Shown here: in pieces, positions 3,100 through 64,000 of the stretch
Position numbering within the stretch: position 1 is the first letter of the stretch
Layout of the letters: each line of letters starts with the position of its first letter
IMG/VR virus record: IMGVR_UViG_3300037408_000437
Coordinates: 3,897 to 67,896 of that record
DNA length: 64,000 nt
Reading direction: 5' to 3' (one strand)
Source of the DNA: a virus
Taxonomy: Duplodnaviria > Caudoviricetes
Program-made: the position numbers and the translations under genes
The notes under the pieces: model-generated
What the model was told of the DNA's origin: nothing
Database searches by the model: none
What the model saw: only the letters and a program-made list of their open reading frames with translations

Positions 3100-3636
3100 C
3101 TAGGTGGGAGGCGGGAGGCGAGGGCTCGGAGTTTCAAAAACCCAACGATAGCCTTTGTGAGTTTTTCGCTTGCCATTGCAACAAGATGAGATACTAGGTA
3201 GAAGGAATCCATAACGAGCCGCTTCGCCCATACTCGAAAACCTTAGTTGCTCGCCGGTCGTTAAGTGCGTCGCTACGATGTTTCGTCTAATTTTAGTCGT
3301 CAACCCCGTCTCGAACGCATGAATCAGATTTTGTTCACAGGTACACCACTGAAGATTTTCAACTCGGTTGTTGGTCTTGACGCCATCCAGGTGGTTGATT
3401 TGGTCATAGCAGTGCGGGTTTTCCAGGAAAGCCTCCGCAACCAGACGATGAACGACCTTATCACTTCTCGCTCCCTGGCGGAACAGGGTCACCTTCTGAT
3501 ACCCGTGAGTAATACCTATCCAAAGAGCTAGCTTCCGTCCCGGCACAGCGCCCCTGCCTGGAGCAACTCGGAAAACGTCACCTTCATCCGAAACTGCATA
3601 AAGTCCTTCGTAGCCGACCACAGGCATAGTATTCAT
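3100..3636 (-). CDS. NUMOD4-HNH-NUMOD1 homing endonuclease
   Basis: VVGYEGLYAVSDEG (NUMOD4), VHRLVAEAF...INHLDGVKTNNRVENLQW (HNH), C-terminal SISSCCNGKRKTHKGYRW. Confidence 0.9.
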   Translation of the reverse strand: MNTMPVVGYEGLYAVSDEGDVFRVAPGRGAVPGRKLALWIGITHGYQKVTLFRQGARSDKVVHRLVAEAFLENPHCYDQINHLDGVKTNNRVENLQWCTCEQNLIHAFETGLTTKIRRNIVATHLTTGEQLRFSSMGEAARYGFLLPSISSCCNGKRKTHKGYRWVFETPSPRLPPPT

Positions 3637-3810
3637 AACGAGCATTTGGCATAGTCGCAAGCGGAGCAACGTTCGCAGCCTTCGCTCTTAATGAGGCGGG
3701 ACTTACATTCAGGGCAGGATAGGGAATCGGACTGGGGGGTTTCTTCGGGGGTTACTACGCGACAACCTACAATACGTTTAGTTATAACTAACATAAACAA
3801 ACCCCACAAA

Positions 3811-3914: not shown

Positions 3915-6900
3915 TTATCGGAACATTTGCTCCAGCAACGCCCGGCGGGTGTCGGGCAACGCGCCGATGATCGGCGATATTCGCAGGATGGCGTCGGTCG
4001 TCTCCTGAGCGAGCCGGCCTTCTCCAGCACCGCCAATTTTGCGGATCATCTGATCCATCGACGTGGCAAACGGCCCAAGCAGCGCCGTGTAGACCGGGGT
4101 GCCGTAACCCGCCGAACGGTTAGCGTCCAACGCCAGTTGCAGCGGCCCGAGCAGCCCGGTTCGGCTGAGAATGTCCATGGCGTAATCCTCGGGCTCCTTC
4201 TCGCGCCGGGCGGGTTTACCCCATAGACCGTCGCGGATTTCCTCGCGCACCACGGTGCCGAGCATGGCCAGAGGGACCATCAGCGCCCACGGCAACGCCA
4301 GGATCAGTACTTTCTTGCCGTAAGAGTCGGCCCGCTGATACTCGCGCAGCATCCGGCCCATGACGACGTGCCCGTAGGACCACAGGAAGGACTTCAGGTG
4401 CCACACCACCATGGCGGCGGGGTGGCTGGCCCACAGCGGCCGCTGGGTGGCGTCGGGGTGCATCGCCGACTCCGCCACGAACTGATTGAGGGCCACTTGA
4501 ATCTTATACGCCGTGGTCTCCTGCGCCTTCTGTTCGGCCTTTTGTTGGGGGGTGTGCGCGGGATTGGGGGGCGGCGCGGTCAATTTCCCATTGAGGCCGT
4601 TGGGGTCCAACCACTTCGTCAGGACGGCGTGGGTCAGTCCGAACTGCTTCAGCAGGGCATCGGACTCGGCGCCGGGTTTAACCGCCAGCCCCTTGAACCA
4701 CTCGATGCCAGTGGCGAACGCCGTCAGCCGGGTGAGGTTGTCCAGCCACTCCATGCCGTTGTAGCGGAAGAACGTGTCGTTCAGCTTGCGAAACGTCTGG
4801 TCCATGAACGGCGTGTCCAGGTAGGCCCGGCCATACAGCCCCCGCAGGTTGTCCATGACCACCCCGTTGGCGGTGGCGATCTGGTACAGCTCGCCCTCTT
4901 TACGCATCTCGCCCAGGGCGGTGGTCAGACCCCGCCAGGACGCCCCCATGGCGCCATTGGCGCGGATGGCGGGTACGGCGAGGCCGGCCAGGTTGGTGGT
5001 CACCGCCAGGGGCAGCAGCGCCCAGTTCATGCCGGTTACGATCAGCGACGACAGACGCCGCAGGTTAGGGTCGAAGTCCGCGCCGGCCCGGCCCAGCACC
5101 GCGTCCATGGCCTTAATCATGAAGCGCAGTTGCGAGGGCGTGGCGCCTTCGGCCAGGGCGGCGTTGTACAGGATGCGCAGCTTGACGGTCTGATCCCAAC
5201 GGACCTTGAACTTGTCCGTGCCCTTCTGGGACATCCAGGAGTTCTCGTTGGAATCCCAGTACAAATTACCGTGTTTGGCCGGGTCGTGCAGCGCTGGCAC
5301 CGAACCTTGCAGGCTGTAGTCCACGCTGCCGTTGGTCGGTATGACTACCCAGGCCGCGAAACGCCGCTCGAACTCGACCCGCTTGATGAGCTGGGTGGCG
5401 TACTCCTTCATGGTGGCTTCCGGTTCCGTCGTCACCCGCAGGAACGGCAGCAGGTCAATGTCATTGACCGAAGCCAAATCGGAGTTCAGCCGGGCCAGGG
5501 CCAGGTGAGGCGCGTAGAAGCTGTAGTCCTCACCCCGATAGAGCGAAACCTCGGTCAGCAGATGGTTGTAGACTTCTTCCGCTTCGGCGGGCTTCCAGGC
5601 ATACTTGATGGTCAGCATGTCCAGAAAGTCCTGTTTGTTAGCCGTCAGGGCGTCCTTGTTCCAAATGCGCGGCAGCTCCGTGGACTGAGAGCCGACGTGC
5701 GAGTTCAGAACATCCTTGTAGTAGTCCTTCAGCCGTTCAAACAGCTTAGCCAGGTTCTTGACTTCGACCGGCGCGGTAGCGAGTTGGTTGGTGTCTCGCG
5801 CTACTACGTACCGGCGCATGAGGTCCTGCTTCTGCGAGTCGGTCAGGTTGTCGAACGCTTCGTTCACCCACAACGCCTTGCCCGCCGCCTGACGCAGCCA
5901 CGCCGGCCGGAATCCTTCAAAATAGCGGGACTGGCGGGCGAAGTCGATAGTCATATCCCGGTAGGTATACGGGGCCGGCGCGGCGGCGCCTGGCGCTCGC
6001 ACAATGAGATCGGCCAGGGCTGTCAACGCCGCCAGCGGCTTGCCGTTCGGGTCCAGCTCGGAGCGCAGCCGGGCATCCAGGGTCTTGGTAATGTGGTGGT
6101 GCAGGGACCTGGCGTGCCGCCACACTCCCCGAGCTCGGTCGGCGATAAACTTGCCCGCTCGGGTACTCTCCAGCAGTTTCTGCCCGGCGTAGTACCGAAT
6201 ACCAGGGCTGTAATCTGGAGTCGCGTTTAGCAGGGTTTCCATACCCTCTTTCAGGTCAGACAGCACGCCGTTTTGCTGCATCACCGCATTGCGGTACTGG
6301 ATAGTGGCCAGCACTCCGGACAGGAAGTTATCGACGAACTGCTTGCTGTCCTTGGTCTTGGCCCGACCAGTCTTGCCAAACAACTTGTCGTAGAACGCTT
6401 GGAGCCGGCCGAGCAAGTAGTCGATGAACTTGCGTACCATCGGCGGGCCTTTGACCTCTACCGGCTTGTCCAGCCCCAGGAGGATACGCTGCATCCGGGA
6501 GGCCACGTATTCATCCACCATCAGGTCGTCGGAGATGAGAGCGATCCTCGGTTGCCCGCCCGTGGCTTCCTTGACCAGTTGTTTCCAGACGGCGGCTTGT
6601 TTGCCTCCCGTAGCCTTCTTCAAATCAGACAGGTTGGTGCGGTAGAATACATGCCCCATCTCGTGAGCCAGTTTACCTCTTACCGTGTCGTAATCCTCAC
6701 CCTGGGTAATCAAGTAAACGTGGGGCACGTCGTCCTTGTACACGGTGAAATAGGGATCGTTCTGGGCCATGGCCACGATCTCGTCGGCCTGTTCGGTCAG
6801 CGCCAGCTCGTCGAGCAGTTGCCGGAAGGTCGGCGTTTCACCACGCTCGCGCGCCATCCGCAGCAAATCGATATGTTGCAGTACCGCAGTGGGTATACCC

Positions 6901-9900
6901 AGTTCCGACATCATCCAGTTGAACTCGCCGCGAAGCTCCGTAGTTTGTTCAGCGGTGAATTCGTTCGCGGATACGGGCTGGGCAGTAGGCAAAGGTTTCT
7001 GCTTAACCTTAAACCACTCAGATTCAGAGAGTATTGGGTTGTTATCCAGCCAGTCTTGATAATGCCGTTCGGCTTCGACTTTGGCCTTACTCGCTTCCGC
7101 GCGTTGTTCAGGGGTAACAGTCTTCGGTTCTGGTTTTACTTCAGGCGGACGGGCCGCGACTTCGGAGCCTTCCAGTTTACCTTCGCCTGGCATAGTCCGT
7201 AGCGTGGCGCTAGGCTCTTCACCAGACAACCTCCCCAGCTCCTTGGAGGTCTTTTGAACACGATATTCAATCTGTCGCCATTCTTCGCCGTATAACCGCT
7301 GATCATCCGCCGCTGACCGGTCCCAAGCAGGATCTTTGATACCGGCGCGTTCCAGGAGATCGAGTACGGCCTCACTATCGTTCAGGGCGTTGTCATCGCG
7401 TAGAGTACGATCTTGGTACACTTCACGTACTTCTGTGATTTTACTACGTGCCAAGCGTAATTTAGCGTTACGGTTAAGGAATACGTTACGTAATTTACCT
7501 ACAAACCTAGCGAGAACGTCGGGGTTGTTCAATAGGAACACATCGTCTTCCTTGGCGGGAAATCCCATGGCTTCACGGTCAGAGGCTTCTTGCCGGCGTC
7601 GGACGGTTTTTTGAAACTGCCGTTCCAACTCACTCAAATCCTCCGTTAAAGCTGCGGCTTCATTCTGTAAAGTCGCGATCTCTTTAATCAACCCTTTTAT
7701 TGAACTCTTTACTTCAAGTACGTCGCCGACAGTTACGAATTCGCGAGTCTTGGGGTCGTATTTCAGTATCCAGCCACGTAGCGGGCTGTTTTCAGGGAGG
7801 TTATCAAAATCAACCAGCGACAAATCGGTTTTTATACCGTCGGTGGTTTGGTATTTCCACATTTTCGCCGGAACAGGCTTATCGTCTTTATCTTTCCTGA
7901 TGCTGCCGTCTAAGTTTTTTAGATAAACCGGCTGATTCTTCGCGTCCTTCTTATCCACCAACTGAGTATGGGTCTCGGTGGGCATCGGCCGCAAACTGTG
8001 CGCGAGTTTAGTGCGTAATACCTCAAAGCCCTTGACCAACGCCGCGATGCGATCCATGTGGGTGCCGGAAACGGCGTCCAAGCCCCGCATGGCGGTATAG
8101 CCCACCTTTACCACGTCGTCTAGCGTCAACTCCGCCGAAGCCCCGGTGGTTAGGTGGGAAGCGTCATTTTCATGGTATTTCAGATAGGCACGGACGAACA
8201 GGTCGATAATACCACCGAAGTTATCAACCTTGATGGCGTGGTAGTTCTCAGTAACGGTGCGTTTGGTCCTCGGCTTCTGGTACGTATATAGCGGAATACC
8301 CATTTGCTCCGCAAGGGTTTTGTTGATAATGACCATGCCGCGCCCCTGAGTTTCCAGGCGCGATGGGTCTTTTACCAGACTCTCATATCGGGCTTTATCC
8401 TTGGCTCGTTGCGCAGGAGATTTCTTTTTGTCCAGCTTCGGGTCTATCAGGTCGTCGAGATTCTCTAAAAATCCTTGGTCGTTACGAAATTGAACCTTAC
8501 CTTCGAAGAACACGGCGTTATCAAAACCCATCGCCGCCAACAATGACCTGCCGAAGTCCTTGGCGCCTTCCGTCAGTCGGCGTTTACCGCCGATTAGTGG
8601 ATCGTCCTCCAACGCTTTATCGACTTCCAGTACTAATCCTTGGAGTTTATGGCGCGTGGCCGGGTCCGTGAAGTCCAAACCACGCCAATCGTCCACGGTC
8701 TGCTTGGCACTGGCGAGTGCCTGCTCCATCGCGCCAACCATGCGCTGGATTAGTGGGTGCTTCAAATTAGCTCCCGTTGAAAACACTACCCCGGAATTAC
8801 GCTTGCTGGATTCAGCCATTCGGGATGTACTGCGCCGCCGTTCCTCCACCAGGGTAGCCAACGAGTCCAGCGTGGCGCGGGACAGCCCGCCCTCCATCCG
8901 AACCAAGTCGGCGTCCGGGCCGGGTTTGGCGGTTTCCTTAACGTAGACGATTTGTCGGCCATCTGGGATTCGGTGTTGAGCCAGTTCGAACTTTACATCG
9001 AGGCCGGCCTGATTCAGCATCAGGGTACGGGTCATCAGTACGTGCTGCATCGCGGCGGGTAGCGCTTCGAACAGCGGATTTCCATAGCTGGCATCGAATC
9101 GCTCGCCCATCCGGGCGCCTTTCAAATCCAGCGAACGAGTACCGCCAGCATTGAGCAGGCTACCAGAATCCAGTTCGTCGCCCAGCGGAATCGCTTCGAC
9201 TCGCGAATATACCTGTCCTTGCCGGTCACGGGTATTTTTGCCCGCCGTCTCGAAGACCGTGGAACGTAATGCCAGAGCGTGAGATAGGGTGTCCGGGCGT
9301 TCCTGAGTTTCGAGGTCATCGTCGTAGCGTAGCGCATCAACGACATTGGTATCGACAAAATCGCTCTCTTCGGGGATGGCCTCAAGCAACCCACCATCTT
9401 CATCAGATAACGGAACCATCTCTTCGTAGCGTTCTTGGTCTGCTTCCTGACTACGCCGTTCGTTAACTAGGTCTTCTACGGTTAATTCATTGCTCTCTTT
9501 ACGTTGTAGGGCCTCATAGAGATTTACCAACGTTCGTAAGAACTGCTCACTGGAAACACGCTCGCCCAATAAATCTTGGTAAGCGAGTCGAGCCGTTCTG
9601 AGGTCCTCGGGTGCTACGTCAGGGTCGACCACTAGCTCCTGCATTACAGCTTCAAGATTTTGCCGGTCATCTACCCTGGCGAGAGCAGTGAGTACATGTT
9701 TGACTACTGTGTACTTCCCATCGGCACCCAGCGCGCGCATTTGCAGAACCGGTAAGAATTCCGAAGTGACGCCCGACAGCCCGACAGCGGTACGTAGTTT
9801 CGTTACGTAGCCACCTCCTAACTGATCCGCCAGTAAACGTTCGAGGGCGGCGTTTACCGTTGGGTTAGCGCGCTCGGTAGGCTTGGCGACGATAGCTGAA

Positions 9901-12900
9901 ATCAGAGCTTCATTGAACAATGCTTGGTTGTCTAAAGCGAATCGTGCCTGATCCACCATCGCTCGAAGAATGACGGGGTTAGTGCGTAGCGCCTTGGCGA
10001 CTTCTCCACTCAACCAGCTCGCGGGAGATGTACCAGCGGGAGCCGACTGTTCGATAGCCGCGACCAGCGCATCCCGGTATTTGGCGTCCAGTTTGGAGAA
10101 TAACCCGTTATTAACGAGATATCGGGCAAACGCATTAGGTAGGGTGTCGGGGCCGTCGTAATAAAGCCCAGCATCCATCCAATCGTAGGCGCCACGAAAC
10201 TCATCTTGATCTATCAAGTTCGCGAATGGGGTAACGATCCCACCCCCATCCATGTCCATCGCTTCCGGCACGACAGGAACTTCTTCAAGACCAAACACAG
10301 TCCTCCACCCATATAGCCACCGCCCGTCGTTACCGTCAAGCGTAATAGGGTCTTTCTGGCGTAGTTTGCGCCACTGTTCCCACCCTTTCCGAAACTTATC
10401 CAGGTCCATCAGTTTCTGGGCGTTGTCTATCCGGTCTTTTGCCGTGGCCGGCGGCCCAGGATTATCCGCAACGTATTCCAAAAACTGGGTTTTGATCGTG
10501 GCGAAGTCATCGACTTCCTCAAACAGCCGGCTCAGTTCACGCATCCACGCCCGGCGCGAATCAGTAAGCCCTGGCAGGGCTCCGAGCAGGTCGTTCAACT
10601 CCTGTTTGGCTTTCGGGCCGAGCTGCTGCCGTTCGAGCTGTAACCCCTGCTGGTAGCCCACCGCCGTACCGAAAGTCTTAGCGATGGTGGCCGCGCCGAT
10701 CAGGTCGGTCAGAGCGTTGGCCAGCTCCGGAGCCTGAACGCCCCAGGCGGCTTTCAGTTGCTGAGCGGTGAGCTGACTGAACTTAGCCAGCTCCGTGTGC
10801 CGGCGCGGACTGAACCAGGGGTATTGCTGGTCAAGCGCAAGTCGGCCTTGGGCGATTATCTGGGAAACCAGCTTGGTGCGAGTTACCTCGTCCGGCAACT
10901 TCCGCGCCGCCGCGTCGGCCTGCTCCAGCGCCTTGGCCCAGCGGTCGTAGACGGCCCAGGCGTCGAGGGAAACCACGGAGGCGTTCATCAGGTCGCGGGC
11001 CGCTCGCACTTGCTCGGTAAAATCCTTCTCACCCACGGCGTACAGCAGGCGTTGCAGCGTGGCGGTGACCTCCGGGAACCAGCCCTGGGTCTCGGCCCAC
11101 CGATGGCGGTTCCGTTCGGCGGCTTCCATCACGAACCGGGCCACGGCGGCGTTCGGGGTCCTGGCGCGCAGCAAGGAACCCTTACCCTGAGTCAGTGCCT
11201 GAATACGCTGGTACAACTGCTTGAACCGGGCCACCAGCCGGTTGATCCATCGCCTGACCAGGGGTTGCTGCTTTTCGAGGAACGTCAGTACCTGCGGGTC
11301 GTTGACTAGCACGCCGGCTATCTGGTCGGCGAGCCACTCCCGTTTGCTCAGGATGTACGGTTCGGTTTGGCCTTCGTCCACCCGCATCAACCGCGCTTTG
11401 GTCTTATCAGACATCTTCGCCGGTTCCCGCAGTTGAACGACGCGGCTGGATGTTTGGATATCCGCCGGGTCCCGGCCGGCTTGCGCTTTGTGCCAGGCCG
11501 CGTAGGCGGCGTCAACCGCATTCTTCACTTCGGGCGAAGCTTCCTCCCAAGCCTTGGTGTGGAGCCAGTGCCCCACCTCATGCCCTATCGTCGTGTAGAT
11601 GACGGTCTGGTTGGCTTTCAACTTCAGATCGTCGGGTCCCGCGCGCTCGCTAATGATCTCCAGATAATCGGGGTTGATCCAGAGAGCCGGCGTCGGTCCC
11701 GCCGGGTCCAGCGCCGCTGCCCCCGCTTCGCTCACGCCCTGGGCTTTCATAGCGTCGGTCAGCGCGGACGTAACCATCAGGTCGGGCAAGCCCAGCAGCC
11801 GGGTCAGGTCGTTGACGAACGCTTTGGCTTTCGCATGGCCCCTGGAAACCTCGGCCCTCGTGTAGACGCGTTGAGGAGCGGCAGGCGTAGGAGCGGCAGG
11901 CGTAGGAGCGGCAGGCGTAGGAGCGGCAGGCGTAGGAGCGGCAGGCGTAGGAGCGGCAGGCGCAGGAGCGGCAGGCGCAGGAGCGGCAGGCGTAGGAGCG
12001 GCGCCTAACTCTGCAAGTTTCTTTTGTAAATATGCAAAGGTCTTTGGCGCTGAAGTATCGAGCTTAGCTAGACCTGTACCAAGCCCATCTTCTGGGAGTA
12101 CAACTGAGGCCGTAGCAGGAATTTTAGCGAAAGCTTCGTCGATAGCTTTAATATTCTGATCGTACTCAGCGTCTGTCATAAACGCCGACGGTTCCATTGT
12201 AGGAGCTTTCTTTGTTGGTACGCCTATCGCATTAGGTTCTCCGCGCATCTCCTTGGCTTGGCCCCCAAACCCAACCCGACGAAGATTATCTCCAAACAGG
12301 TAAATAGTTTTAGGGTTAGCTTTAAGATCGTTACGAGTAATCCACTTTTGGTTAGCTACTTTACGCGTAGGAACGGTAGGCGTAGGAGCAGTAACGGGTT
12401 CAAGAGTCGGCGCGCGGTAGGGGTAGCCGTTTTGGTCTAAGTACTCTCGCTCGGGTTCGGCAGTAGCAGGCGTGGGAGCGGCGGGCGCTTGCTCCGTTAA
12501 CGCCGCTGTAAGGGCCGTATTAACGAATTGTTCGATGCCGGGCTGGCTTTTTTCTCGGTGCCCGGCAATATTTAATGTCTTAACTCCGGTTTGTTTAACG
12601 AAGTTCCATATCTCCCTAGCTGCCTGATGTGGGTCGCGAGATGTAATAACCAATACAGGTCGGTGCCCATCTAGTTTGGTTTGTAGCGCGCCGTTTTGCC
12701 ATTTTCCGGTTTGCGCAAAACCTATTGTCTTAGAAGTACCTACACTAGGACCCCAAACAAATGCTATGGTAGCTTCAGCATCGTTGACATTTTGAATAGT
12801 ACGAGGTACGTAATTATCGCTACTATGTTCTTTAAGGCCGAATTCCGCCCCGTATTCAGGGCGAGCGCCTTCATCAGTACGCCAACCTTTTGGTATGGTA

Positions 12901-15900
12901 CCACCTGTTTCTACCCCCAAAGCCTTAGCAGCCTTTAGGCCACCTAAATCACCCCCTGTCTGCCCTCCTGAGATAATTCGAACGACTCCTAGTTTATTAG
13001 TAGCAGCAGGCGTAGGAGCGGCAGGCGTGGCAGTGGGTAGTTGAGCTAGTACTTCAGCAAGCCTTTGCTGGGTCGGCCACTCCTCACCCCAACGAGTGCC
13101 TCGGATGTTTCCCGCGCCCTTGGCTTTTTTCTCCCCCACCAGAGCTCGGGCAAACCCGGAAGCATGGACATCTCGACTTTCCACCCCAGAGAAAAACCGC
13201 GCGCCGAGCGCATCCAGGCTTTGGAGCAAGGAGGGTCGGATGATCTTGCTCAGCTCGGCCTTCAACGCGTCGGACAAAAGCGGGATGCCGGTATCCCGGT
13301 GTTTTATCCGGCCGGTCTGCGGGTCGGGCGCGGCGCCGGGGATGGGCTCCCGAATAGTGGCGTTCCAGGCAGCGGCCAGATGACGGATGTTGAGCCGCTT
13401 AAACGCGTCCCACTGCTGGTTGTTTAACCAACCAGGCTTGTCACCCCAGCCCTGGCGGGGGCCTTGAGGAACCCCGTTGACGACGTTGGAGAAGACTTTA
13501 TGTTCGGCGAGGTCCTCGATTTCCTTGGGAGTCAGACGGTTTATGGTTTCCGTCCGAACGGCGGCATCGTCGATATCGAAGGGGGTAGTGGGCGCGGTGG
13601 GCGCGGTGGGCGCGCCTGGGGCGACTTGCCCTGTACGATTACTTATGCTACGTTCTGTTTGTCCCAGGTTGTCTCGGAGAATTTCATGGCTAGGCCCCAC
13701 AGAGTCGCTAAGTATAGAAGTATTCGGGTTAACGGCACTTGTAAGCTCGCCCACCGTACTGCCGTTGAGAACCTCGTTGGTAGGTCTTTGCTCCCCACCG
13801 AACATATTCACCATATCGACGGGGATACTCTTAATAACCTGCCCGATAATCTTCTGATTATCAGCCCCTCCGAACATACCAGCTTTCACCACTCTACCAG
13901 AGTTAGACGCATAAGCTGGGATTTCGACCGAGCCTACAAACTCAGGATGAGCGGCTACAGCGTACAGAAGATTGCTAACGAACTCGGGGTTACTAGAGGC
14001 GCTATTTGCGGCGTCTTCAAGCGACGTAAAATTCCTGTTAATGATTGTAGAAAAGACCTTACTTGGGATATTAACACCGCTAGAATCCTTTATCGAAGCG
14101 GAAAGACGGTTAGCGAAATCTCCAATACTATTAATGCCCCGAGAAGCAGCCTCTATCGTGCTCTTAAGCGAGGAGATATCTAAAGGTGGAACAGTCCCAG
14201 CAACATTCGGTGCAGTGGTTGCCCCTGGCGCCCCCACCGTCGGTGGAAGTGGAGATGGTCCGAACGCTGGAGGCGATTCAGGCGGTGGAGGTGTATCTGA
14301 AGTTGGCTCAGATACAGGAGGGCCTGCTTCAGGCGTTGCAGTCGGTTGACGAGGCTGACTGAGGTACGACGCCGCGCCGCCCGGCGCCGCGAACACGCCG
14401 CCGAAGATCATGCCGGCGACGCCGGCCTCCAAATAGCGAGTTCGGTTCTCGGGCGTGGTGAGTCGGTCGAGCAGGGGTACGGACTGGTCGGGGTTTTGTA
14501 GTTCCTGGGTGGCGACGGCAACGATTTCCTGCATCGCTTCGGTGGCACCCTCCGTCCCCATACCGCCTAGTACTCGCTTGGCGACTTCCCCCACCAGCGA
14601 CTTGGCGGCGCCAGTAGCCGCTTCCTCGGTCGCGCCGCCCAGCAGTTTGGCCAGCGGAGCCACGGCGTAATGCAGCGCGGCCGTGTCCAACAAGCCGGCC
14701 ACCGCGCCGCCCGCCAGTGACAGACCGGGGCTGACCTGCTCCGGGCCGTAGGCCTGTTTGGTGTCTTCGTAGATGTGGCCGGCTTCCAACGTGGTCGAAC
14801 CCAGCCAGGCGCCCGGCAGCGCCGCGCGGCCCGCGTACATGCGCCGCAGCCAGGCTTCCGGGTTGGTGGCGACTCGGTGGGCGGCGGCGTAAATCTCGCC
14901 CGGCGACGCGTTGACGCCGGCCGCGCCCAGCCGCTTGACGGCCTGCGCCGCCAGCGTCTTTTCAGCCTGCTTGATCGCCAGCCCCCGCAACATGCCGGCG
15001 CCGGTCGCTTCAGCGGCGCCAGCCACGCCAGCCCGCGCCGCCAGGTTGCCCAGCGCCGCCGTTCCGACGCCGCGCGCCGCCAGCCCAGCCACCGTACCTA
15101 TTCCGGACGTAGCCACGGCGGTGCCCAGCATGGCCAGGGTGCTGGGTACGGCTTCGCCCAGCGTCTCCAGCCCCCACTGCAAGGCGTTGACCTTGCCCTC
15201 CCAGGCGTCCTCCAGAGTACCGACTTTGGGGATGGCCCGCGCCTTGGCGTCGTGCTCCATGTAGCCGGCTTCGCCGGTACGCTGCAACCAGTTGGTAATC
15301 CGGTCACGTAGGGTGAGCTGGTCTTCAGGGAGATTACGAGGCTCGCGCGCTCCTTCGTTGTTCGCCAGCAAATCACCTACCGCCGACACCGTGCCGTAGG
15401 CCCCGGCCATCATGCCTTCGAGCCCGCGCGCCACGCTGGACTTGAGCGCTTCACCAGCCGTGCGGTTCTTCAGATCGAACACCACCGGCTCGGGGATATC
15501 GACCTGCGGCGCCCGGCCCTGGTAAGCGGCGATGGCCCGCTCCCGATAGTCTGGCTCGCTGAGCCGGTTGTAGCGGCGCCGGGACTCGGCGCCAAACGGG
15601 GCTACCGGCGCCTTGTTGTAGTTGGTGGAGGGCGCGACGCCTCGCTCCACCATCTGACCGTACACGCTCCGGCCTTCGGGAGTAATCTCGTCGGCTACCG
15701 TCCGGCCGTACTTGTCCTGACCGTACCGGATGGGTTTGGTGTTCGGGTTCTGCGCGAACAGTTGCGCGGAACGCGCGTAGGCCTCTTGACCTTCGGGGAT
15801 GAGTTGACCGGTTTTCTTATCCTGGAGCTCCGCCGCGTTGACGCCGTAGCCGCGAAATACCTCGCCAGAAGGGCGCGTGAAGGTATCGGCGTCGCGCATC

Positions 15901-16025
15901 ACTCCTTGGGGGGTTGACAACTGACCGTACTCGGTAGGCAGGTCTCCCGGCGTGATAGGAGAAGTCGGGCGCTCGGCAAGCTTGCGAGCGTCCAGTTCGG
16001 CCAGTCGTTCCGCGAAAGTCGGCAT
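3915..16025 (-). CDS. Giant (4036 aa) polyvalent internal-virion/ejection protein with two zincin metallopeptidase motifs, a cpYpsA-SLOG domain and a Macro-like domain
   Basis: Last gene of the structural operon; HEVGH (11568-11582) and HEMGH (6651-6665); RIISGGQTGGD...LNIAGHRE (SLOG); FGDN...G.GGQA...NAIGVPTK...GLGTG (Macro-like); Pro/Ala/Thr linkers. Confidence 0.8.
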   Translation of the reverse strand: MPTFAERLAELDARKLAERPTSPITPGDLPTEYGQLSTPQGVMRDADTFTRPSGEVFRGYGVNAAELQDKKTGQLIPEGQEAYARSAQLFAQNPNTKPIRYGQDKYGRTVADEITPEGRSVYGQMVERGVAPSTNYNKAPVAPFGAESRRRYNRLSEPDYRERAIAAYQGRAPQVDIPEPVVFDLKNRTAGEALKSSVARGLEGMMAGAYGTVSAVGDLLANNEGAREPRNLPEDQLTLRDRITNWLQRTGEAGYMEHDAKARAIPKVGTLEDAWEGKVNALQWGLETLGEAVPSTLAMLGTAVATSGIGTVAGLAARGVGTAALGNLAARAGVAGAAEATGAGMLRGLAIKQAEKTLAAQAVKRLGAAGVNASPGEIYAAAHRVATNPEAWLRRMYAGRAALPGAWLGSTTLEAGHIYEDTKQAYGPEQVSPGLSLAGGAVAGLLDTAALHYAVAPLAKLLGGATEEAATGAAKSLVGEVAKRVLGGMGTEGATEAMQEIVAVATQELQNPDQSVPLLDRLTTPENRTRYLEAGVAGMIFGGVFAAPGGAASYLSQPRQPTATPEAGPPVSEPTSDTPPPPESPPAFGPSPLPPTVGAPGATTAPNVAGTVPPLDISSLKSTIEAASRGINSIGDFANRLSASIKDSSGVNIPSKVFSTIINRNFTSLEDAANSASSNPEFVSNLLYAVAAHPEFVGSVEIPAYASNSGRVVKAGMFGGADNQKIIGQVIKSIPVDMVNMFGGEQRPTNEVLNGSTVGELTSAVNPNTSILSDSVGPSHEILRDNLGQTERSISNRTGQVAPGAPTAPTAPTTPFDIDDAAVRTETINRLTPKEIEDLAEHKVFSNVVNGVPQGPRQGWGDKPGWLNNQQWDAFKRLNIRHLAAAWNATIREPIPGAAPDPQTGRIKHRDTGIPLLSDALKAELSKIIRPSLLQSLDALGARFFSGVESRDVHASGFARALVGEKKAKGAGNIRGTRWGEEWPTQQRLAEVLAQLPTATPAAPTPAATNKLGVVRIISGGQTGGDLGGLKAAKALGVETGGTIPKGWRTDEGARPEYGAEFGLKEHSSDNYVPRTIQNVNDAEATIAFVWGPSVGTSKTIGFAQTGKWQNGALQTKLDGHRPVLVITSRDPHQAAREIWNFVKQTGVKTLNIAGHREKSQPGIEQFVNTALTAALTEQAPAAPTPATAEPEREYLDQNGYPYRAPTLEPVTAPTPTVPTRKVANQKWITRNDLKANPKTIYLFGDNLRRVGFGGQAKEMRGEPNAIGVPTKKAPTMEPSAFMTDAEYDQNIKAIDEAFAKIPATASVVLPEDGLGTGLAKLDTSAPKTFAYLQKKLAELGAAPTPAAPAPAAPAPAAPTPAAPTPAAPTPAAPTPAAPTPAAPQRVYTRAEVSRGHAKAKAFVNDLTRLLGLPDLMVTSALTDAMKAQGVSEAGAAALDPAGPTPALWINPDYLEIISERAGPDDLKLKANQTVIYTTIGHEVGHWLHTKAWEEASPEVKNAVDAAYAAWHKAQAGRDPADIQTSSRVVQLREPAKMSDKTKARLMRVDEGQTEPYILSKREWLADQIAGVLVNDPQVLTFLEKQQPLVRRWINRLVARFKQLYQRIQALTQGKGSLLRARTPNAAVARFVMEAAERNRHRWAETQGWFPEVTATLQRLLYAVGEKDFTEQVRAARDLMNASVVSLDAWAVYDRWAKALEQADAAARKLPDEVTRTKLVSQIIAQGRLALDQQYPWFSPRRHTELAKFSQLTAQQLKAAWGVQAPELANALTDLIGAATIAKTFGTAVGYQQGLQLERQQLGPKAKQELNDLLGALPGLTDSRRAWMRELSRLFEEVDDFATIKTQFLEYVADNPGPPATAKDRIDNAQKLMDLDKFRKGWEQWRKLRQKDPITLDGNDGRWLYGWRTVFGLEEVPVVPEAMDMDGGGIVTPFANLIDQDEFRGAYDWMDAGLYYDGPDTLPNAFARYLVNNGLFSKLDAKYRDALVAAIEQSAPAGTSPASWLSGEVAKALRTNPVILRAMVDQARFALDNQALFNEALISAIVAKPTERANPTVNAALERLLADQLGGGYVTKLRTAVGLSGVTSEFLPVLQMRALGADGKYTVVKHVLTALARVDDRQNLEAVMQELVVDPDVAPEDLRTARLAYQDLLGERVSSEQFLRTLVNLYEALQRKESNELTVEDLVNERRSQEADQERYEEMVPLSDEDGGLLEAIPEESDFVDTNVVDALRYDDDLETQERPDTLSHALALRSTVFETAGKNTRDRQGQVYSRVEAIPLGDELDSGSLLNAGGTRSLDLKGARMGERFDASYGNPLFEALPAAMQHVLMTRTLMLNQAGLDVKFELAQHRIPDGRQIVYVKETAKPGPDADLVRMEGGLSRATLDSLATLVEERRRSTSRMAESSKRNSGVVFSTGANLKHPLIQRMVGAMEQALASAKQTVDDWRGLDFTDPATRHKLQGLVLEVDKALEDDPLIGGKRRLTEGAKDFGRSLLAAMGFDNAVFFEGKVQFRNDQGFLENLDDLIDPKLDKKKSPAQRAKDKARYESLVKDPSRLETQGRGMVIINKTLAEQMGIPLYTYQKPRTKRTVTENYHAIKVDNFGGIIDLFVRAYLKYHENDASHLTTGASAELTLDDVVKVGYTAMRGLDAVSGTHMDRIAALVKGFEVLRTKLAHSLRPMPTETHTQLVDKKDAKNQPVYLKNLDGSIRKDKDDKPVPAKMWKYQTTDGIKTDLSLVDFDNLPENSPLRGWILKYDPKTREFVTVGDVLEVKSSIKGLIKEIATLQNEAAALTEDLSELERQFQKTVRRRQEASDREAMGFPAKEDDVFLLNNPDVLARFVGKLRNVFLNRNAKLRLARSKITEVREVYQDRTLRDDNALNDSEAVLDLLERAGIKDPAWDRSAADDQRLYGEEWRQIEYRVQKTSKELGRLSGEEPSATLRTMPGEGKLEGSEVAARPPEVKPEPKTVTPEQRAEASKAKVEAERHYQDWLDNNPILSESEWFKVKQKPLPTAQPVSANEFTAEQTTELRGEFNWMMSELGIPTAVLQHIDLLRMARERGETPTFRQLLDELALTEQADEIVAMAQNDPYFTVYKDDVPHVYLITQGEDYDTVRGKLAHEMGHVFYRTNLSDLKKATGGKQAAVWKQLVKEATGGQPRIALISDDLMVDEYVASRMQRILLGLDKPVEVKGPPMVRKFIDYLLGRLQAFYDKLFGKTGRAKTKDSKQFVDNFLSGVLATIQYRNAVMQQNGVLSDLKEGMETLLNATPDYSPGIRYYAGQKLLESTRAGKFIADRARGVWRHARSLHHHITKTLDARLRSELDPNGKPLAALTALADLIVRAPGAAAPAPYTYRDMTIDFARQSRYFEGFRPAWLRQAAGKALWVNEAFDNLTDSQKQDLMRRYVVARDTNQLATAPVEVKNLAKLFERLKDYYKDVLNSHVGSQSTELPRIWNKDALTANKQDFLDMLTIKYAWKPAEAEEVYNHLLTEVSLYRGEDYSFYAPHLALARLNSDLASVNDIDLLPFLRVTTEPEATMKEYATQLIKRVEFERRFAAWVVIPTNGSVDYSLQGSVPALHDPAKHGNLYWDSNENSWMSQKGTDKFKVRWDQTVKLRILYNAALAEGATPSQLRFMIKAMDAVLGRAGADFDPNLRRLSSLIVTGMNWALLPLAVTTNLAGLAVPAIRANGAMGASWRGLTTALGEMRKEGELYQIATANGVVMDNLRGLYGRAYLDTPFMDQTFRKLNDTFFRYNGMEWLDNLTRLTAFATGIEWFKGLAVKPGAESDALLKQFGLTHAVLTKWLDPNGLNGKLTAPPPNPAHTPQQKAEQKAQETTAYKIQVALNQFVAESAMHPDATQRPLWASHPAAMVVWHLKSFLWSYGHVVMGRMLREYQRADSYGKKVLILALPWALMVPLAMLGTVVREEIRDGLWGKPARREKEPEDYAMDILSRTGLLGPLQLALDANRSAGYGTPVYTALLGPFATSMDQMIRKIGGAGEGRLAQETTDAILRISPIIGALPDTRRALLEQMFR
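11875..12003. repeat. 15-bp tandem repeat, 8 full units plus a partial, encoding a (PAAPT/PAAPA)n linker
   Basis: GGAGCGGCAGGCG(T/C)A units read directly. Confidence 0.95.
13626..13654 (+). promoter_or_regulatory. Sigma70-like promoter for the nested HNH gene
   Basis: TTGCCC-17 bp-TACGTT with an extended -10 TG; GGAGA RBS at 13676-13680. Confidence 0.5.
13686..14183 (+). CDS. HNH homing endonuclease with C-terminal HTH repeats, nested antisense inside the giant gene
   Basis: AHR...EHIHHIDGDTLNNLPDNLLIISPSEHTSFH HNH core plus two HTH-like segments (YSVQKIANELGVTRGAI; KTVSEISNTINAPRSSLYR); RBS 5 nt before the ATG. Confidence 0.85.
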   Translation: MARPHRVAKYRSIRVNGTCKLAHRTAVENLVGRSLLPTEHIHHIDGDTLNNLPDNLLIISPSEHTSFHHSTRVRRISWDFDRAYKLRMSGYSVQKIANELGVTRGAICGVFKRRKIPVNDCRKDLTWDINTARILYRSGKTVSEISNTINAPRSSLYRALKRGDI

Positions 16026-40005: not shown

Positions 40006-40136
40006 GCGTATTCTCCAAAGAGTGGGCCGGCGCCGCCAGCCCCTCTTACAGTATCTCAAAAGAAATTTCCAAAAAAAGTTGCTTGGGTACGCTATTTGGT
40101 GCTATCCTAAGCATAACTCACTACCTGGACCCGTTT

Positions 40137-40703
40137 ATGCGCGCTACTTACGGCCTTCGCCCCATTCTATCCATGTCCGAAGCTCAACGAGCTAAGTTCT
40201 GGAGCAGGGTAGCTATTACCGAGCCTGATGCCTGTCACAACTGGACCGGCTTCATAAACCCCTGTGGCTACGGACTTTGGTCCGTATACTGGGAAGACAA
40301 CGCTCGGTCGTCCTTTCTCGCCCATCGAATAGCTTACGCACTATCCTACGAAGAGCCGCCCCCCTACAACCGAGGAGATAATTGCGTGATCCACACTTGC
40401 GACAACCCCAGATGCTGCAATCCAAGGCATCTAGTTATCGGCTCTCACAAAGAAAACATGCAAGACTGCACGCAAAAAGGACGCAACTATTTCAAACGCA
40501 TCCCTAGACACGGGTCCAAGAACCCGGCAGCACGTCTCAACGAAGACCAGGTTCGGGCGATCAAAACCCAAATGGCCTCTATCGAACGTGGAGCCGGGCG
40601 GCGGAAAGCCCAAGAGGCCCTCGCCGTTGCCCATAAAGTACGCGTCGGCACCATACGGGCTATTTGCGAAGGGCGTAACTGGGCTCATATCCAAATAGCG
40701 TAA
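40137..40703 (+). CDS. HNH homing endonuclease, antisense to the late operon
   Basis: FWSRV...CHNWTG...AHRIAY...VIHTCDNPRCCNPRHL..GSHKENMQD; start uncertain (40083-40173). Confidence 0.9.
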   Translation: MRATYGLRPILSMSEAQRAKFWSRVAITEPDACHNWTGFINPCGYGLWSVYWEDNARSSFLAHRIAYALSYEEPPPYNRGDNCVIHTCDNPRCCNPRHLVIGSHKENMQDCTQKGRNYFKRIPRHGSKNPAARLNEDQVRAIKTQMASIERGAGRRKAQEALAVAHKVRVGTIRAICEGRNWAHIQIA

Positions 40704-60802: not shown

Positions 60803-61276
60803 ATGTGGACTGGATTCATGGACATGCACAGCGGTGGCGACACTAAAATAGAGCCATACGAATACATTTTCATAGAAGCCCCAGAAGACGAAGCAAAAGT
60901 AATCTTCTACAACCGCTTCCATCGCAACCCAGAACGGATAACCTGCACGTGCTGTGGTGGGGACTATAGCATTACCACCTACCCCAACCTAGCGCAAGCA
61001 ACAGCCTATGAACGCGGCTGCGCATATGGTTACATAAACGCTAACGGCATTGAAATAACTCCTGATGACTGGTACGCACTGCCCCTTAGGCAACAACATG
61101 AATGGAAAGGCCAATACCTCGAACGTGAAAACTACAGAAACCACAAATACCTAACACTAGAAGAATATATGGAATGCAATGACGTACTGTTTATCCCTGC
61201 TTCGTGCATCGAACCACACGAAAGACAGGGCGAAATTCCATCAGAAGGTTATATATGGATCGAATCAAATGACTGA
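60803..61276 (+). CDS. Conserved phage protein with CxCC motif
   Basis: FMDMHSGG..K.EPYEYIFIEA...RNP.R.TC.CCG.DY; AGGAG RBS. Confidence 0.65.
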   Translation: MWTGFMDMHSGGDTKIEPYEYIFIEAPEDEAKVIFYNRFHRNPERITCTCCGGDYSITTYPNLAQATAYERGCAYGYINANGIEITPDDWYALPLRQQHEWKGQYLERENYRNHKYLTLEEYMECNDVLFIPASCIEPHERQGEIPSEGYIWIESND

Positions 61277-64000
61277 CACGACCTTCATCGATTTCGAAAC
61301 CCATTACACTCAGGACTATAATCTCAAGAAATTAAATTACTACCAATATATACAAGACCATAGATTTAGTATTCTAGGCGCGGCCATTATTCATAACAAC
61401 GAGCCCGCTCAATGGTTAACTGGCCTTGACCTCGCCACACTCCTGGATGAACTACGATACAACCCGCCCGAAGCCGTCGTAGCCCATAATACCCTATTCG
61501 ATGGCCTCATCCTCACCCAGCTCGGCGTCACCACCGAGCTATGGGTAGACACACTCAGCATGGCCAGAGCCCTGTTGCCCCCTGGCACCCCACTAAGCCT
61601 GGATGCCCTGGCCAAACGCTACCACCTGGGCCAGAAACTGGAAGGTCTGCCGATGGGCATAGCCTCGTGGGACGAACTCTCTCCCGAGGCCCAGCGCCGC
61701 CTGAAGGTCTACGCCATTAATGACGTGGAGCTCCTTCAAAAGCTCTATCAAACCCTCGCGCCACAATTCCCAAGCCAGGAGTTTGAATTAATCGACCTAA
61801 CCCTGCGAATGGCATTCAAACCTCATTTGCAACTCAACATGCCATTAGCCCAACAACTCCTAGCATCCGTGGGGGACCGAAAAACCAGACTCATCAATGA
61901 ATCAGGGCTCTCGGAAAAAGTATTATCCTCGAACAAACAGTTCTCTGAGTGGCTCCTAGCAAACAACTATGACGTACCAATGAAGGTTTCCCCGACTACC
62001 GGTAAACAAACTCCGGCCCTCGGCAAATCCGACCAAGCCTTCCTCGATCTTCTCGAAGATAACCCAGAACTCGAACCCGTCATCGAAGCCCGGTTAGCCG
62101 TTAAATCCACTCTGGAAACCACTCGCTTAACCACGCTCATCGAAACTCAGCAACTCATGAGAGGCGTCCCGGTCCCCTTAAAATACTACGGCGGACATAC
62201 TGGTCGCTGGAGTGGATTGTTCTATAACCTTCAAAACTTACCTAAAAAATCCGAAATCCGTAATACCCTGGAAGCCCCAGAAGGAGAAACCCTCATTATC
62301 GTTGATAGCAGCGCCATCGAGGCCCGAGTTCTAGCCTGGCTAACTGGTCAGGAATTTGCCTTGACCGCATACAAAAATAACGAGGACCTCTACAAGGTCA
62401 TGGCGGGTAAAATATATAACAAAGAACCCACCAAAGTAACTAAGGATGAACGCACCTTAGGTAAAATCGCGGTACTTGGATGCCTAGCATCAGATACCCA
62501 AGTATTGACAGATATGGGATGGAAGCCTATAATCGCAGTATCAATTTCCGACAAACTATGGGATGGTGTATCGTGGGTAAGGCACAAAGGCTTGATTTAC
62601 CAGGGTCAACAGACAGTAATAACGCAACACGGCGTAACCATGACCCCCGATCACCTCGTTCTGACGCCCGTAGGTTGGCGCAAATGGGAGGACACCCATA
62701 CAAACCATTCCCTTATGGACTCGGCGACAAAATTGGTGAATTTACCATCAAAGGCTGGGAGCAAAGATTCACCTCTTCGGGCCGCAGTAATGGCTGGCAT
62801 CCAATCGTGGTTTGTTCATGTGGTTGGACCGGCATGGTACTCCGTGAAAACCTTATTAAAGGAAAAACTACCCGTTGTAATACCTGCGCTAAACGTAAAT
62901 CAACAGATACTCGAAAACATTATTGGGGTTATGCGGAAATACTCCCGGATAACAACCACCGAACTCGCCTACTCAACCGACTCTCTTCCTGCATCGGACG
63001 CTGCCATTGCCCAACCAACACATACTACCACCACTATGGAGAGCGAGGAATATCCGTATACCAACCATGGAGAGAAGATCGCGGGACCTTTCTCAACTAC
63101 GTTCAAACGCTTCCTGACTGGGATATCCCAGAATATGAACTGGATCGCATCAACGTGGATGGCAATTACGAACCAGGTAATATCCGATTCGTATCCAAAT
63201 CAACCAACCTTTGTAACAAACGAAAAGTCCCCACACTCCAATATAGAATCACAGAACTCGAACAAGAAAATACCCGTCTACGATCTGAGCTATTGCGGAC
63301 CAAACAACAGATTTACGATCTTGAGCAACAAAGGACCGCTATTAGTACATAATTGCGGCTATGGAATGGGATTCAACAAATTCGTTCTTACCTGTAAAAC
63401 TTACGGAGTGACAATATCCGAAGAACTCGCCCAAACAACCATAGATACTTACCGAGAAACCTATAACCTAGTTCGTAATCTCTGGCGTACCTTCAATTCT
63501 TATATCCAGATAATGACTACCGATTTCGCTGAAAAATCAGGTAAAACCCCGTGGCTTAAATATACCGCACCTAACGAAACCCCGTGGCTTGAATATACCG
63601 CATCTAACGAAACCCTAACAACCCTGATATTCACAACTGAAAAAATTAGATTACCAAATGGACTCGCTCTCCATTATCCTAATCTACACCAAAACAACCA
63701 AGGAGAATATGTTTACGGACTTAAAAACAGCATTAAAAAAGTCTATGGCGCAAAAGTCGTCGAAAACATAGTACAAGCCCTAGCCCGTAACATCATCGCC
63801 AAACAAATGCTAGACGCCTATAAAACGCTACCGGGTACACTCGTACTATCCGTTCACGACGAGATAGTAGTCAGTACAAAAACCCAACACGCCGAATCAG
63901 TTTTACAAGACCTTATAACCATCATGAAAACTCCACCTAATTGGGCCAGCACTTGCCCTCTCGATGCCGAAGGCTCGATCTCCAAATTCTACAAGAAGTA
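61269..64000 (+). CDS. polA: Family A DNA polymerase with 3'-5' exonuclease, intein-containing; runs to the window edge, not in the ORF track
   Basis: My translation: IDFETH, AHNTLFD, YAINDV (exonuclease); HTGRWSG, NLQNLP, DSSAIEARVLAW (motif A), KIAVLG|CGYG (motif B, split by the intein), ENIVQALAR, SVHDEIV (motif C). Confidence 0.95.
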   Translation, partial: MTDTTFIDFETHYTQDYNLKKLNYYQYIQDHRFSILGAAIIHNNEPAQWLTGLDLATLLDELRYNPPEAVVAHNTLFDGLILTQLGVTTELWVDTLSMARALLPPGTPLSLDALAKRYHLGQKLEGLPMGIASWDELSPEAQRRLKVYAINDVELLQKLYQTLAPQFPSQEFELIDLTLRMAFKPHLQLNMPLAQQLLASVGDRKTRLINESGLSEKVLSSNKQFSEWLLANNYDVPMKVSPTTGKQTPALGKSDQAFLDLLEDNPELEPVIEARLAVKSTLETTRLTTLIETQQLMRGVPVPLKYYGGHTGRWSGLFYNLQNLPKKSEIRNTLEAPEGETLIIVDSSAIEARVLAWLTGQEFALTAYKNNEDLYKVMAGKIYNKEPTKVTKDERTLGKIAVLGCLASDTQVLTDMGWKPIIAVSISDKLWDGVSWVRHKGLIYQGQQTVITQHGVTMTPDHLVLTPVGWRKWEDTHTNHSLMDSATKLVNLPSKAGSKDSPLRAAVMAGIQSWFVHVVGPAWYSVKTLLKEKLPVVIPALNVNQQILENIIGVMRKYSRITTTELAYSTDSLPASDAAIAQPTHTTTTMESEEYPYTNHGEKIAGPFSTTFKRFLTGISQNMNWIASTWMAITNQVISDSYPNQPTFVTNEKSPHSNIESQNSNKKIPVYDLSYCGPNNRFTILSNKGPLLVHNCGYGMGFNKFVLTCKTYGVTISEELAQTTIDTYRETYNLVRNLWRTFNSYIQIMTTDFAEKSGKTPWLKYTAPNETPWLEYTASNETLTTLIFTTEKIRLPNGLALHYPNLHQNNQGEYVYGLKNSIKKVYGAKVVENIVQALARNIIAKQMLDAYKTLPGTLVLSVHDEIVVSTKTQHAESVLQDLITIMKTPPNWASTCPLDAEGSISKFYKK
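62481..63353 (+). mobile_element. 291-aa intein in polymerase motif B, with no in-frame endonuclease
   Basis: Block A CLASDTQVLTDMGWKPI, block B TPDHLV, block F VYDLSYCGPNNRF, block G LVHN followed by extein Cys; frame checked stop-free codon by codon. Confidence 0.93.
62684..63352 (+). CDS. HNH homing endonuclease in the -1 frame inside the intein
   Basis: CSCG...C..C, YG.RGISV...W, ELDRINVDGNYEPGNIRFV...N..NKR; ORF open from ATG 62480; AGGT RBS before ATG 62684. Confidence 0.88.
   Translation: MGGHPYKPFPYGLGDKIGEFTIKGWEQRFTSSGRSNGWHPIVVCSCGWTGMVLRENLIKGKTTRCNTCAKRKSTDTRKHYWGYAEILPDNNHRTRLLNRLSSCIGRCHCPTNTYYHHYGERGISVYQPWREDRGTFLNYVQTLPDWDIPEYELDRINVDGNYEPGNIRFVSKSTNLCNKRKVPTLQYRITELEQENTRLRSELLRTKQQIYDLEQQRTAIST
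63544..63614. repeat. 33-bp in-frame tandem duplication in polA
   Basis: AAACCCCGTGGCTT(A/G)AATATACCGCA(C/T)CTAACG x2, encoding TPWLKYTAPNE/TPWLEYTASNE. Confidence 0.95.

Follow-up and report, generated by a model that had tools for sequence, protein, structure and literature searches.

How can a complete homing-endonuclease gene lie inside another gene, on the opposite strand, without interrupting it? The question is raised by a 64,000-nucleotide stretch of DNA (the window) that makes up most of a 67.9-kb IMG/VR viral record (IMGVR_UViG_3300037408_000437). A single giant gene for a 4036-residue polyvalent virion protein runs along its minus strand (3915..16025), and within it the plus strand carries a 165-residue open reading frame (ORF) for an HNH endonuclease (13686..14183). 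An initial annotation, made from the letters alone, had proposed that the mobile HNH gene spares its host by being read, in the opposite direction, as a tolerated linker. This proposal has since been strengthened by 19 copies of the arrangement for which DNA is available (the window's included; contigs from IMG/VR, Logan and GTDB; a further one, P0010, is represented by its protein only), by full stop avoidance, by selection on the HNH frame and by an empty site in a relative. We hold it to be very probable that 13626-14183 is a minimal homing-endonuclease cassette, consisting of a leader and an I-HmuI-like HNH gene of the ShiLan HNH family, which lies antisense and codon for codon in a Pro/Thr/Ala linker of the giant gene.

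Is the plus-strand ORF a genuine HNH gene? It runs from an ATG at 13686 to a TAA at 14183 and encodes an HNH_3 domain (about residues 20-64) followed by two helix-turn-helix (HTH) modules. Against Pfam the protein scores 37.7 bits with HNH_3 (cut-off 24.8) and 36.1 bits with HTH_7 (cut-off 23.8), several PHROG HNH families match it (best E 1.7e-14), and annotated HNH homing endonucleases of phages share about 31% identity with it (P0001); 13 Mycobacterium phage records are among its listed matches, which were not examined singly. The motif EHIHHIDGD..NN...NL...EH is intact, and the residues H42, H43, N51, N55 and H64 are invariant in 11 family members, the window's included. Translation, Pfam and PHROG agree in this way with the complete 165-residue protein, with intact motif and HTH repeats, of the initial annotation. 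The AlphaFold2 (AF2) model of the HNH frame has a mean predicted local distance difference test score (pLDDT) of 86.4. In a structure alignment (VIA-align), its residues 1-73 fit I-HmuI (1u3e) with a Z of 8.1 and a root-mean-square deviation of 2.4 Å over 72 aligned residues, the top match (the next has 6.4); with Foldseek alone the match of the model to I-HmuI is weak (E 0.024). The HTH modules resemble resolvase and transposase HTH domains (Z 5.5-6.1). Taken together, sequence and model confirm an intact HNH_3 plus HTH gene with a predicted I-HmuI-like fold. A Shine-Dalgarno-like GGAGA (13675..13679, plus strand) is present 5 nt before the ATG, where a ribosome-binding site had been pointed out. 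Other nested HNH genes have comparable or stronger Shine-Dalgarno sequences, such as AAGGAGG in L018 and GGAGGA in L012, and not every copy has one. The block also stands out by its GC (guanine plus cytosine) content, which is 0.44-0.49 as against 0.59-0.66 in the flanks on both sides.

What is the gene on the other strand? The frame of the host gene is unbroken over its entire length, and across the HNH gene it is free of stops, just as first described. In Pfam, its product matches cpYpsA of the SLOG group (2.5e-26), DUF7831 (4.9e-41) and, with an SNase-like N-terminus, SNase (7e-4); residues 3634-3984, the C-terminal structural region, match a PHROG virion structural protein (1.8e-17). It has two HExxH zincin motifs, one with a weak Peptidase_M48 match in Pfam and the other seen in the translation, and Pfam returned no LPD family match in the window's own giant protein. 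Polyvalent proteins of phages and conjugative elements, with their LPD, ART-PolyVal and InPase families, were reportedly described by Iyer et al. in 2017. With its domains strung through linkers and its zincin motifs, the window's host gene qualifies, by its translation, as a polyvalent-protein gene. Like the polyvalent proteins, this host and all other hosts examined are giant multi-domain proteins whose domains are joined by linkers. The domains described for polyvalent proteins are in-frame, whereas the antisense HNH cassette is a gene of its own, encoded on the other strand.

The stretch of the host protein that faces the HNH gene comprises residues 615-780 (13686..14183, minus strand), is the codon-aligned antisense of the HNH gene and is rich in Ser, Asn and Ile; it starts with a Leu (the antisense of the TAA) and ends with a His (the antisense of the ATG), reading LDISS...GPSH|EIL. 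It lies between a Pro/Thr/Ala/Gly-rich linker upstream (residues ~559-614; 14184..14351, minus strand) and the linker VAPGAPTAPTAPTTP downstream (residues 801-815; 13581..13625, minus strand), so that the translation bears out the odd segment between two Pro/Thr/Ala linkers of the initial annotation. Long, variable Pro/Ala/Thr-rich linkers likewise follow residue ~545 in the homologues P0003-P0005. The peptide IPVDMVNMF of the host frame is the mirror of the HNH motif EHIHHIDGD. No Pfam domain was found in residues 615-780, the AF2 model of the segment has a pLDDT of 59.2 with 0 residues at or above 90, and against the PDB this model gave no fold match, only generic four-helix bundles at E>1. 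Elsewhere in the giant gene, at 12020-12974 (minus strand), the cpYpsA SLOG and DUF7831 domains are encoded in DNA of lower GC content (0.45-0.49) between PTPAA-type linkers; such low-GC stretches between linkers suggest a cassette-wise gain of in-frame domains.

How could a ribosome on the giant messenger pass through a foreign gene written backwards? The HNH and host frames are exactly codon-aligned, HNH codon position 1 facing host position 3. In this relative frame only the sense codons TTA, CTA and TCA give stops in the host frame, and a cassette that avoids them by synonymous choice is therefore translationally transparent. The window's HNH gene, with 14 Leu and 14 Ser codons, has 0 TTA, CTA or TCA codons; with the codon usage of the host gene itself, this would happen by chance with a probability of about 0.036. 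Free-standing relatives contain 4.6 of these codons per 100 codons, and the nested copies with DNA contain 0 (19 of 19). Multiplied together, the chance probabilities of the first 11 copies come to about 4e-22; among these copies is that of a phage with a GC content of 0.39, at a P of 3e-5. The host ribosome is thus predicted, from sequence and model, to read the cassette as a poorly structured spacer of about 166 residues.

Which of the two frames is under selection? Among 11 copies, the mean amino-acid identity is 38% in the HNH frame and 26% in the host (antisense) frame, with sense identity above antisense identity in every pair compared. The BLOSUM62 score per column is 1.78 for the HNH frame vs 0.84 for the host frame, and the nucleotide identity is 0.48, 0.59 and 0.40 at the first, second and third HNH codon positions. 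When only those differing codons are counted that are synonymous in one frame only, the eight closest pairs give 281 for the HNH frame vs 87 for the host frame, and the window's copy compared with the 18 others gives 494 vs 133. At an identical depth of 11 sequences, AF2 also models the HNH frame with far more confidence than the host frame (mean pLDDT 86.4 vs 59.2). Purifying selection accordingly falls mainly on the HNH frame, and the host frame appears essentially to be just kept open. As a control for further constraint on the host frame, the ratio of antisense to sense identity is 0.78 for nested pairs and 0.56-0.64 for free-standing ones, a comparison that is underpowered with its few pairs. 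The initial annotation had named selection on the giant-gene frame only as an outcome that would speak against it; the comparisons of the two frames show the opposite.

Is the window's arrangement a one-off? When 1.84 billion representatives were searched exhaustively by phmmer with the host-frame peptide, two proteins came up, both of them giants: P0010, of 4842 residues (E 6e-22), and P0011, of 3766 residues. Opposite the matching part of the gene for P0011 (L007) lies an intact ORF for a 201-residue HNH plus HTH protein. A scan of IMG/VR with the HNH alignment gave as best matches L008-L015 and L018, all antisense and in relative frame 0, in host frames of 667 residues (ending at the contig edge) to more than 3972 residues; one of these phages has a GC content of 0.39. 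On GTDB contigs the eight best profile matches (116-194 bits) are all nested likewise, in frames of 1661 to more than 4270 residues where the contig allows, and the matches after the best eight have at most 112 bits, with 0 in a giant frame. The Pfam cut-off for HNH_3 is passed by all ten copies from IMG/VR and Logan other than the window's (11/11 with it). P0001 is 28-41% identical to these ten and 30-45% identical to all 18 other nested copies, and in every one of the 19 copies the HNH is intact. The other hosts contain polyvalent-protein domains (LPD1/3/5/23/38, ART-PolyVal, InPase, RadC, Eco57I/SNF2-like), and in no host scanned does the block fall within a stretch matched by Pfam. Antisense nesting in giant polyvalent-protein genes is recurrent. 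A blastn search with window positions 12900-15000 against 50,697 phage records gave no match, and a profile of host-frame peptides found none among proteins of 458-2000 residues, the only size class covered, which makes this weak evidence.

Do the cassettes move? The host giant genes differ in architecture and the insert positions differ, and such scattered, non-homologous positions point to mobility. The closest HNH pair, L013 and L018 (53% identity), has flanks without detectable similarity, and in L009 and P0010, which are 59% identical over ~1650 residues, the block is on opposite sides of that stretch. For the window itself an insertion site is difficult to define: region 380-1010 of the giant protein has only three homologues, P0003-P0005, all without the block, and at 42-45% identity these are too divergent for the purpose. 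For the family, presence and absence at a defined site are both seen, beside the different sites in related giant genes. In L088 (7851-8588) the HNH cassette splits a conserved loop of the InPase domain, with HYGYIR on one side and KGKDGDHVD on the other, and extends from the HNH stop codon to ~27 nt upstream of the ATG. The homologous InPase loop is continuous, an empty site, in L015 (host residues 1431-1434), whose own cassette lies ~80 residues upstream of the same InPase module. In L007 and L091 the cassette is at the same site, with flanks 54-59% identical and HNH proteins 60% identical; in this pair both intact frames have thus been inherited together over a long time. A possible mechanism can be outlined. 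The HNH would be transcribed from its own putative plus-strand promoter and translated from the GGAGA and ATG. The cassette would spread, or would once have spread, by cutting cassette-free alleles, which are then mended by recombinational repair. Polyvalent proteins may be favoured hosts whose beads-on-a-string architecture, possibly with zincin-mediated processing, tolerates an extra spacer.

Several observations on the window's copy weigh against its being such an element, or against its being one still. Taken alone, its stop avoidance is just moderately improbable (P ~0.04). The initial annotation had proposed a promoter, TTGCCC-17-TACGTT, which agrees with the consensus at 7/12 positions only; a consensus promoter scan did not return this pair, and its one site, at 13477-13504, is elsewhere and unremarkable. 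No close relative of the window phage came up in IMG/VR when it was scanned with the HNH or with the N-terminus of the giant protein. All other family members start with a CxxC...FCSxxC zinc ribbon that the window's copy does not have; its columns are at least 90% conserved in the 11 family members and missing only in the window's copy. This copy also has the lower score with the family profile (167 bits vs 209-240 bits), and a quick tree, poorly resolved, puts it on a long branch just outside the main nested cluster. What became of the zinc ribbon? The HNH frame of the low-GC cassette leader (13626..13685, plus strand), which also contains the proposed promoter, reads ...ATFCLSQVVSENF, and in stop-to-stop translations compared by eye the spacing from its FC to the G/KYR motif equals that of FCSxxC, the second zinc-ribbon half, in other members. 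We read ATFCLSQVVSENF as the probable vestige of a truncated zinc ribbon. Since the N-terminal zinc ribbon is lost, the present activity of this copy is uncertain, and it may be weakened, retired or inactive.

The window's copy could then be a retired relic, which arrived in the same manner, is no longer expressed or active here, and persists only because the spacer does no harm and nothing but an in-frame deletion could remove it. With a zinc ribbon lost down to a vestigial FC that stands alone upstream of the present ATG, a lower profile score, a long branch and no convincing promoter, this is a possibility to be taken seriously, though we doubt it. The ORF is complete: it has its Shine-Dalgarno sequence and ATG, none of the invariant catalytic residues is missing, and the two HTH modules are there. 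Its AF2 model is confident, and the signature of HNH-frame selection against 18 relatives (494 vs 133) is present, although that signal is largely ancestral. Might the nuclease instead have been domesticated, so that the HNH benefits the phage by cutting competitor genomes or by marker exclusion, or its antisense transcription tunes the giant gene? All 19 copies are intact, and the intact HNH of L007 and L091 at one site, at 60% HNH identity despite only 54-59% flank identity, has lasted longer than expected for a fixed, non-reinvading selfish gene. The scattered, non-homologous positions point to mobility, however, and a cyclical reinvasion model also accounts for intact copies, which leaves domestication unlikely.

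Could the block be removed before the protein is made or mature, as a group I or II intron, an intein or a translational bypass, so that the open host frame is irrelevant? The window does have an inverted repeat that brackets the cassette and could pair in the host mRNA: its left arm of 22 nt (13604..13625) adjoins the cassette and is complementary at 19/22 positions to the right arm (14218..14239). No other inverted repeat in the 12.1-kb giant gene reaches 19/22. Both arms code for GAPGA-type linker, and such DNA is quasi-palindromic. A comparable repeat was not seen around the other nested copies. Since the window alone has one, two ideas were rejected, that flanking inverted repeats mark the family and that they are the ends of a terminal-inverted-repeat transposon. 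An inversion between the repeats was likewise dropped as a candidate: it would shift the HNH out of the host's frame, and no observation speaks for it. For removal from the messenger, the 592 nt between the repeat arms are not divisible by 3. The initial annotation had seen no intron or intein signals, and none emerged: there is no match to an Rfam (15) intron model, or to any other Rfam model, in 12500-15500 at E<=1, and the host protein has no Hint or intein match in Pfam. The block termini are Leu...His with varied residues after them, and not the Cys/Ser/Thr...His-Asn plus nucleophile of inteins. An intron would not require an open host frame, and this frame is kept open in 19/19 copies, which therefore counts against an intron; such full stop avoidance makes sense only if the frame is translated. 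Removal of the block is accordingly very improbable. No more credence can be given to the converse, in which selection maintains the host-frame segment as a genuine domain and the HNH-like ORF is an ancient fossil or just a by-product. The host-frame peptides can indeed be aligned across giant proteins (P0010, E 6e-22), and their first 80 residues are predicted helical with a pLDDT of 72-87. Yet substitutions favour the HNH frame ~3-4 to 1, sense identity exceeds antisense identity in every pair, no Pfam family matches the segment as against HNH_3 being passed in 11/11 copies tested, the pLDDT is 59 vs 86, and the conserved IPVDxVN does no more than mirror the HNH motif E(H/E)(I/V)HHI(D/N)GD. 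The minimal homing-endonuclease cassette, lying antisense in a linker, is the reading that we keep.

How does such a cassette compare with known systems? Endonuclease genes are known from gene-splitting insertions and as free-standing intergenic genes, further routes beside introns and inteins. In the gene-splitting cases, mobE in nrdA of Aeromonas phage Aeh1 and the mobA/gene 60 bypass cassette of T4, a free-standing endonuclease gene likewise lies within an essential coding region whose function survives; there the host gene is split into two ORFs or relies on ribosomal bypass, whereas the window's host is a single ORF read straight through. With HNH homing endonucleases of the I-HmuI type (1u3e), the window's protein shares an HNH_3 catalytic core with DNA-binding helix-turn-helix modules behind it. 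A group I intron carries the gene for I-HmuI, and typical relatives of I-HmuI are intergenic, while the nested lineage is inside a host ORF and has zero codons that give host-frame stops.

The closest system is the ShiLan domain, a hidden HNH insert in mycobacteriophage methylase genes (Arsenault, Gosselin & Gogarten 2025, PMC11855218; earlier PMC9957025), and a literature search found nothing closer. The ShiLan insert is stop-free in the host frame, is neither intron nor intein, and carries its HNH in a third frame on the same strand; the host-frame product is poorly structured, and the alternate frame folds as an HNH (PMC11855218). The window's case is alike in that an HNH gene lies inside a host ORF without host-frame stops and without intron or intein features. 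The HNH proteins of the two systems are homologous: the HNH of L013, a member of the nested family, matches the gp65 insert of ShiLan at 41% identity (E 2e-17), and it also matches many further phage methylase genes. There are clear differences too. Host gene and HNH share a strand in ShiLan and in cyanophage Cr-LKS3, whereas in the nested family the HNH is codon-aligned on the opposite strand and therefore needs its own promoter and not internal initiation on the host mRNA. The host gene is a methylase in ShiLan and a giant polyvalent virion protein in the window, and the ShiLan HNH has a zinc-finger part that the window's copy lacks. Because its HNH is on the opposite strand and not in a same-strand alternate frame, the window's case is best filed as an antisense variant of the ShiLan-type hidden HNH and not as a member sensu stricto. 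The words 'reverse', 'antisense', 'opposite strand' and 'complement' do not occur in the text of PMC11855218. The initial annotation had spoken of a third route besides introns and inteins; the unspliced nesting within an ORF is indeed seen, but it was not previously unknown, as hidden HNH insertions of this unspliced kind in phage methylases were published in 2023 and 2025 (PMC9957025, PMC11855218). What is new here is the antisense orientation and the class of host gene.

Are methylase genes also entered from the other strand? Three IMG/VR loci, L053:7357-9660, L080:7369-8937 and L066:7408-9882, have related HNH ORFs antisense inside ORFs for N6_N4 DNA methylases (Pfam E 1e-23 to 1e-28). Their relative frame differs from that of the giant-gene cases, and one locus has a GC content of 0.35. 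They insert at an equivalent loop of the methylase, just before GRWP(A/S)N or RRFPAN and, in L053 and L066, directly after G(G)INI(D/E). These three form an antisense counterpart to the same-strand ShiLan insertion already published. In the window itself, a 290-residue ORF at 62480-63352 (plus strand) lies in an alternate frame on the same strand inside the ORF of a DNA polymerase A (61179-63998, plus strand) and has an HNH-like motif, ELDRINVDGNYEPGNIRF. It has no Pfam HNH match at E<=1e-3, only a sub-threshold one to INO80F; if real, it would give this genome a hidden nuclease of the same-strand ShiLan type as well. Weaker HNH matches in long same-strand open frames were seen in the GTDB contigs L128 (in an ORF of 2213 residues), L167 and L164, and these may be in-frame HNH domains or same-strand overprints.

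Other endonuclease and transposon-like genes occur near the giant genes or elsewhere in the window. Two more genes of the HNH_3 type, which are not close relatives of the nested HNH, are at 3100-3669 (minus strand), just downstream of the giant gene, and at 40083-40703, on the plus strand within a long array of minus-strand genes. On the contig that encodes the homologous giant protein P0004 (L006:13567-15297, minus strand), the giant gene shares its last 69 nt with a gene of the opposite strand that resembles IS605 OrfB/TnpB.

What does this arrangement tell us about phage biology? On balance we lean towards a specialised lineage of homing endonucleases that is found only inside the frames of other genes: free of TTA, CTA and TCA it would be invisible to the ribosome on the opposite strand, it would have its own promoter, and it would colonise giant virion-protein genes that could not otherwise be interrupted, as well as DNA methylase genes, the latter in another antisense frame. 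If this is true, one HNH family has arrived at two solutions, the same-strand ShiLan form and the antisense form, both of which gene callers systematically miss. The blind spot in annotation is already visible here, as a word-based search of protein databases found no called copy of the window's HNH and the giant ORF alone is listed. The pair of genes in the window offers a natural case of a long-lived embedded antisense gene pair in which the selected frame can be told, and it suggests a design principle for transparent or overlapping cassettes: by avoiding three codons, the aligned antisense frame stays open. The hidden HNH concept of 2025 is in this way extended to the opposite strand and to a new class of very large host genes. 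A mobile endonuclease gene can live in an essential 12-kb gene with no intron, no intein and no split, by virtue of a stop-free reverse complement, and it has done so repeatedly in uncultured phages.

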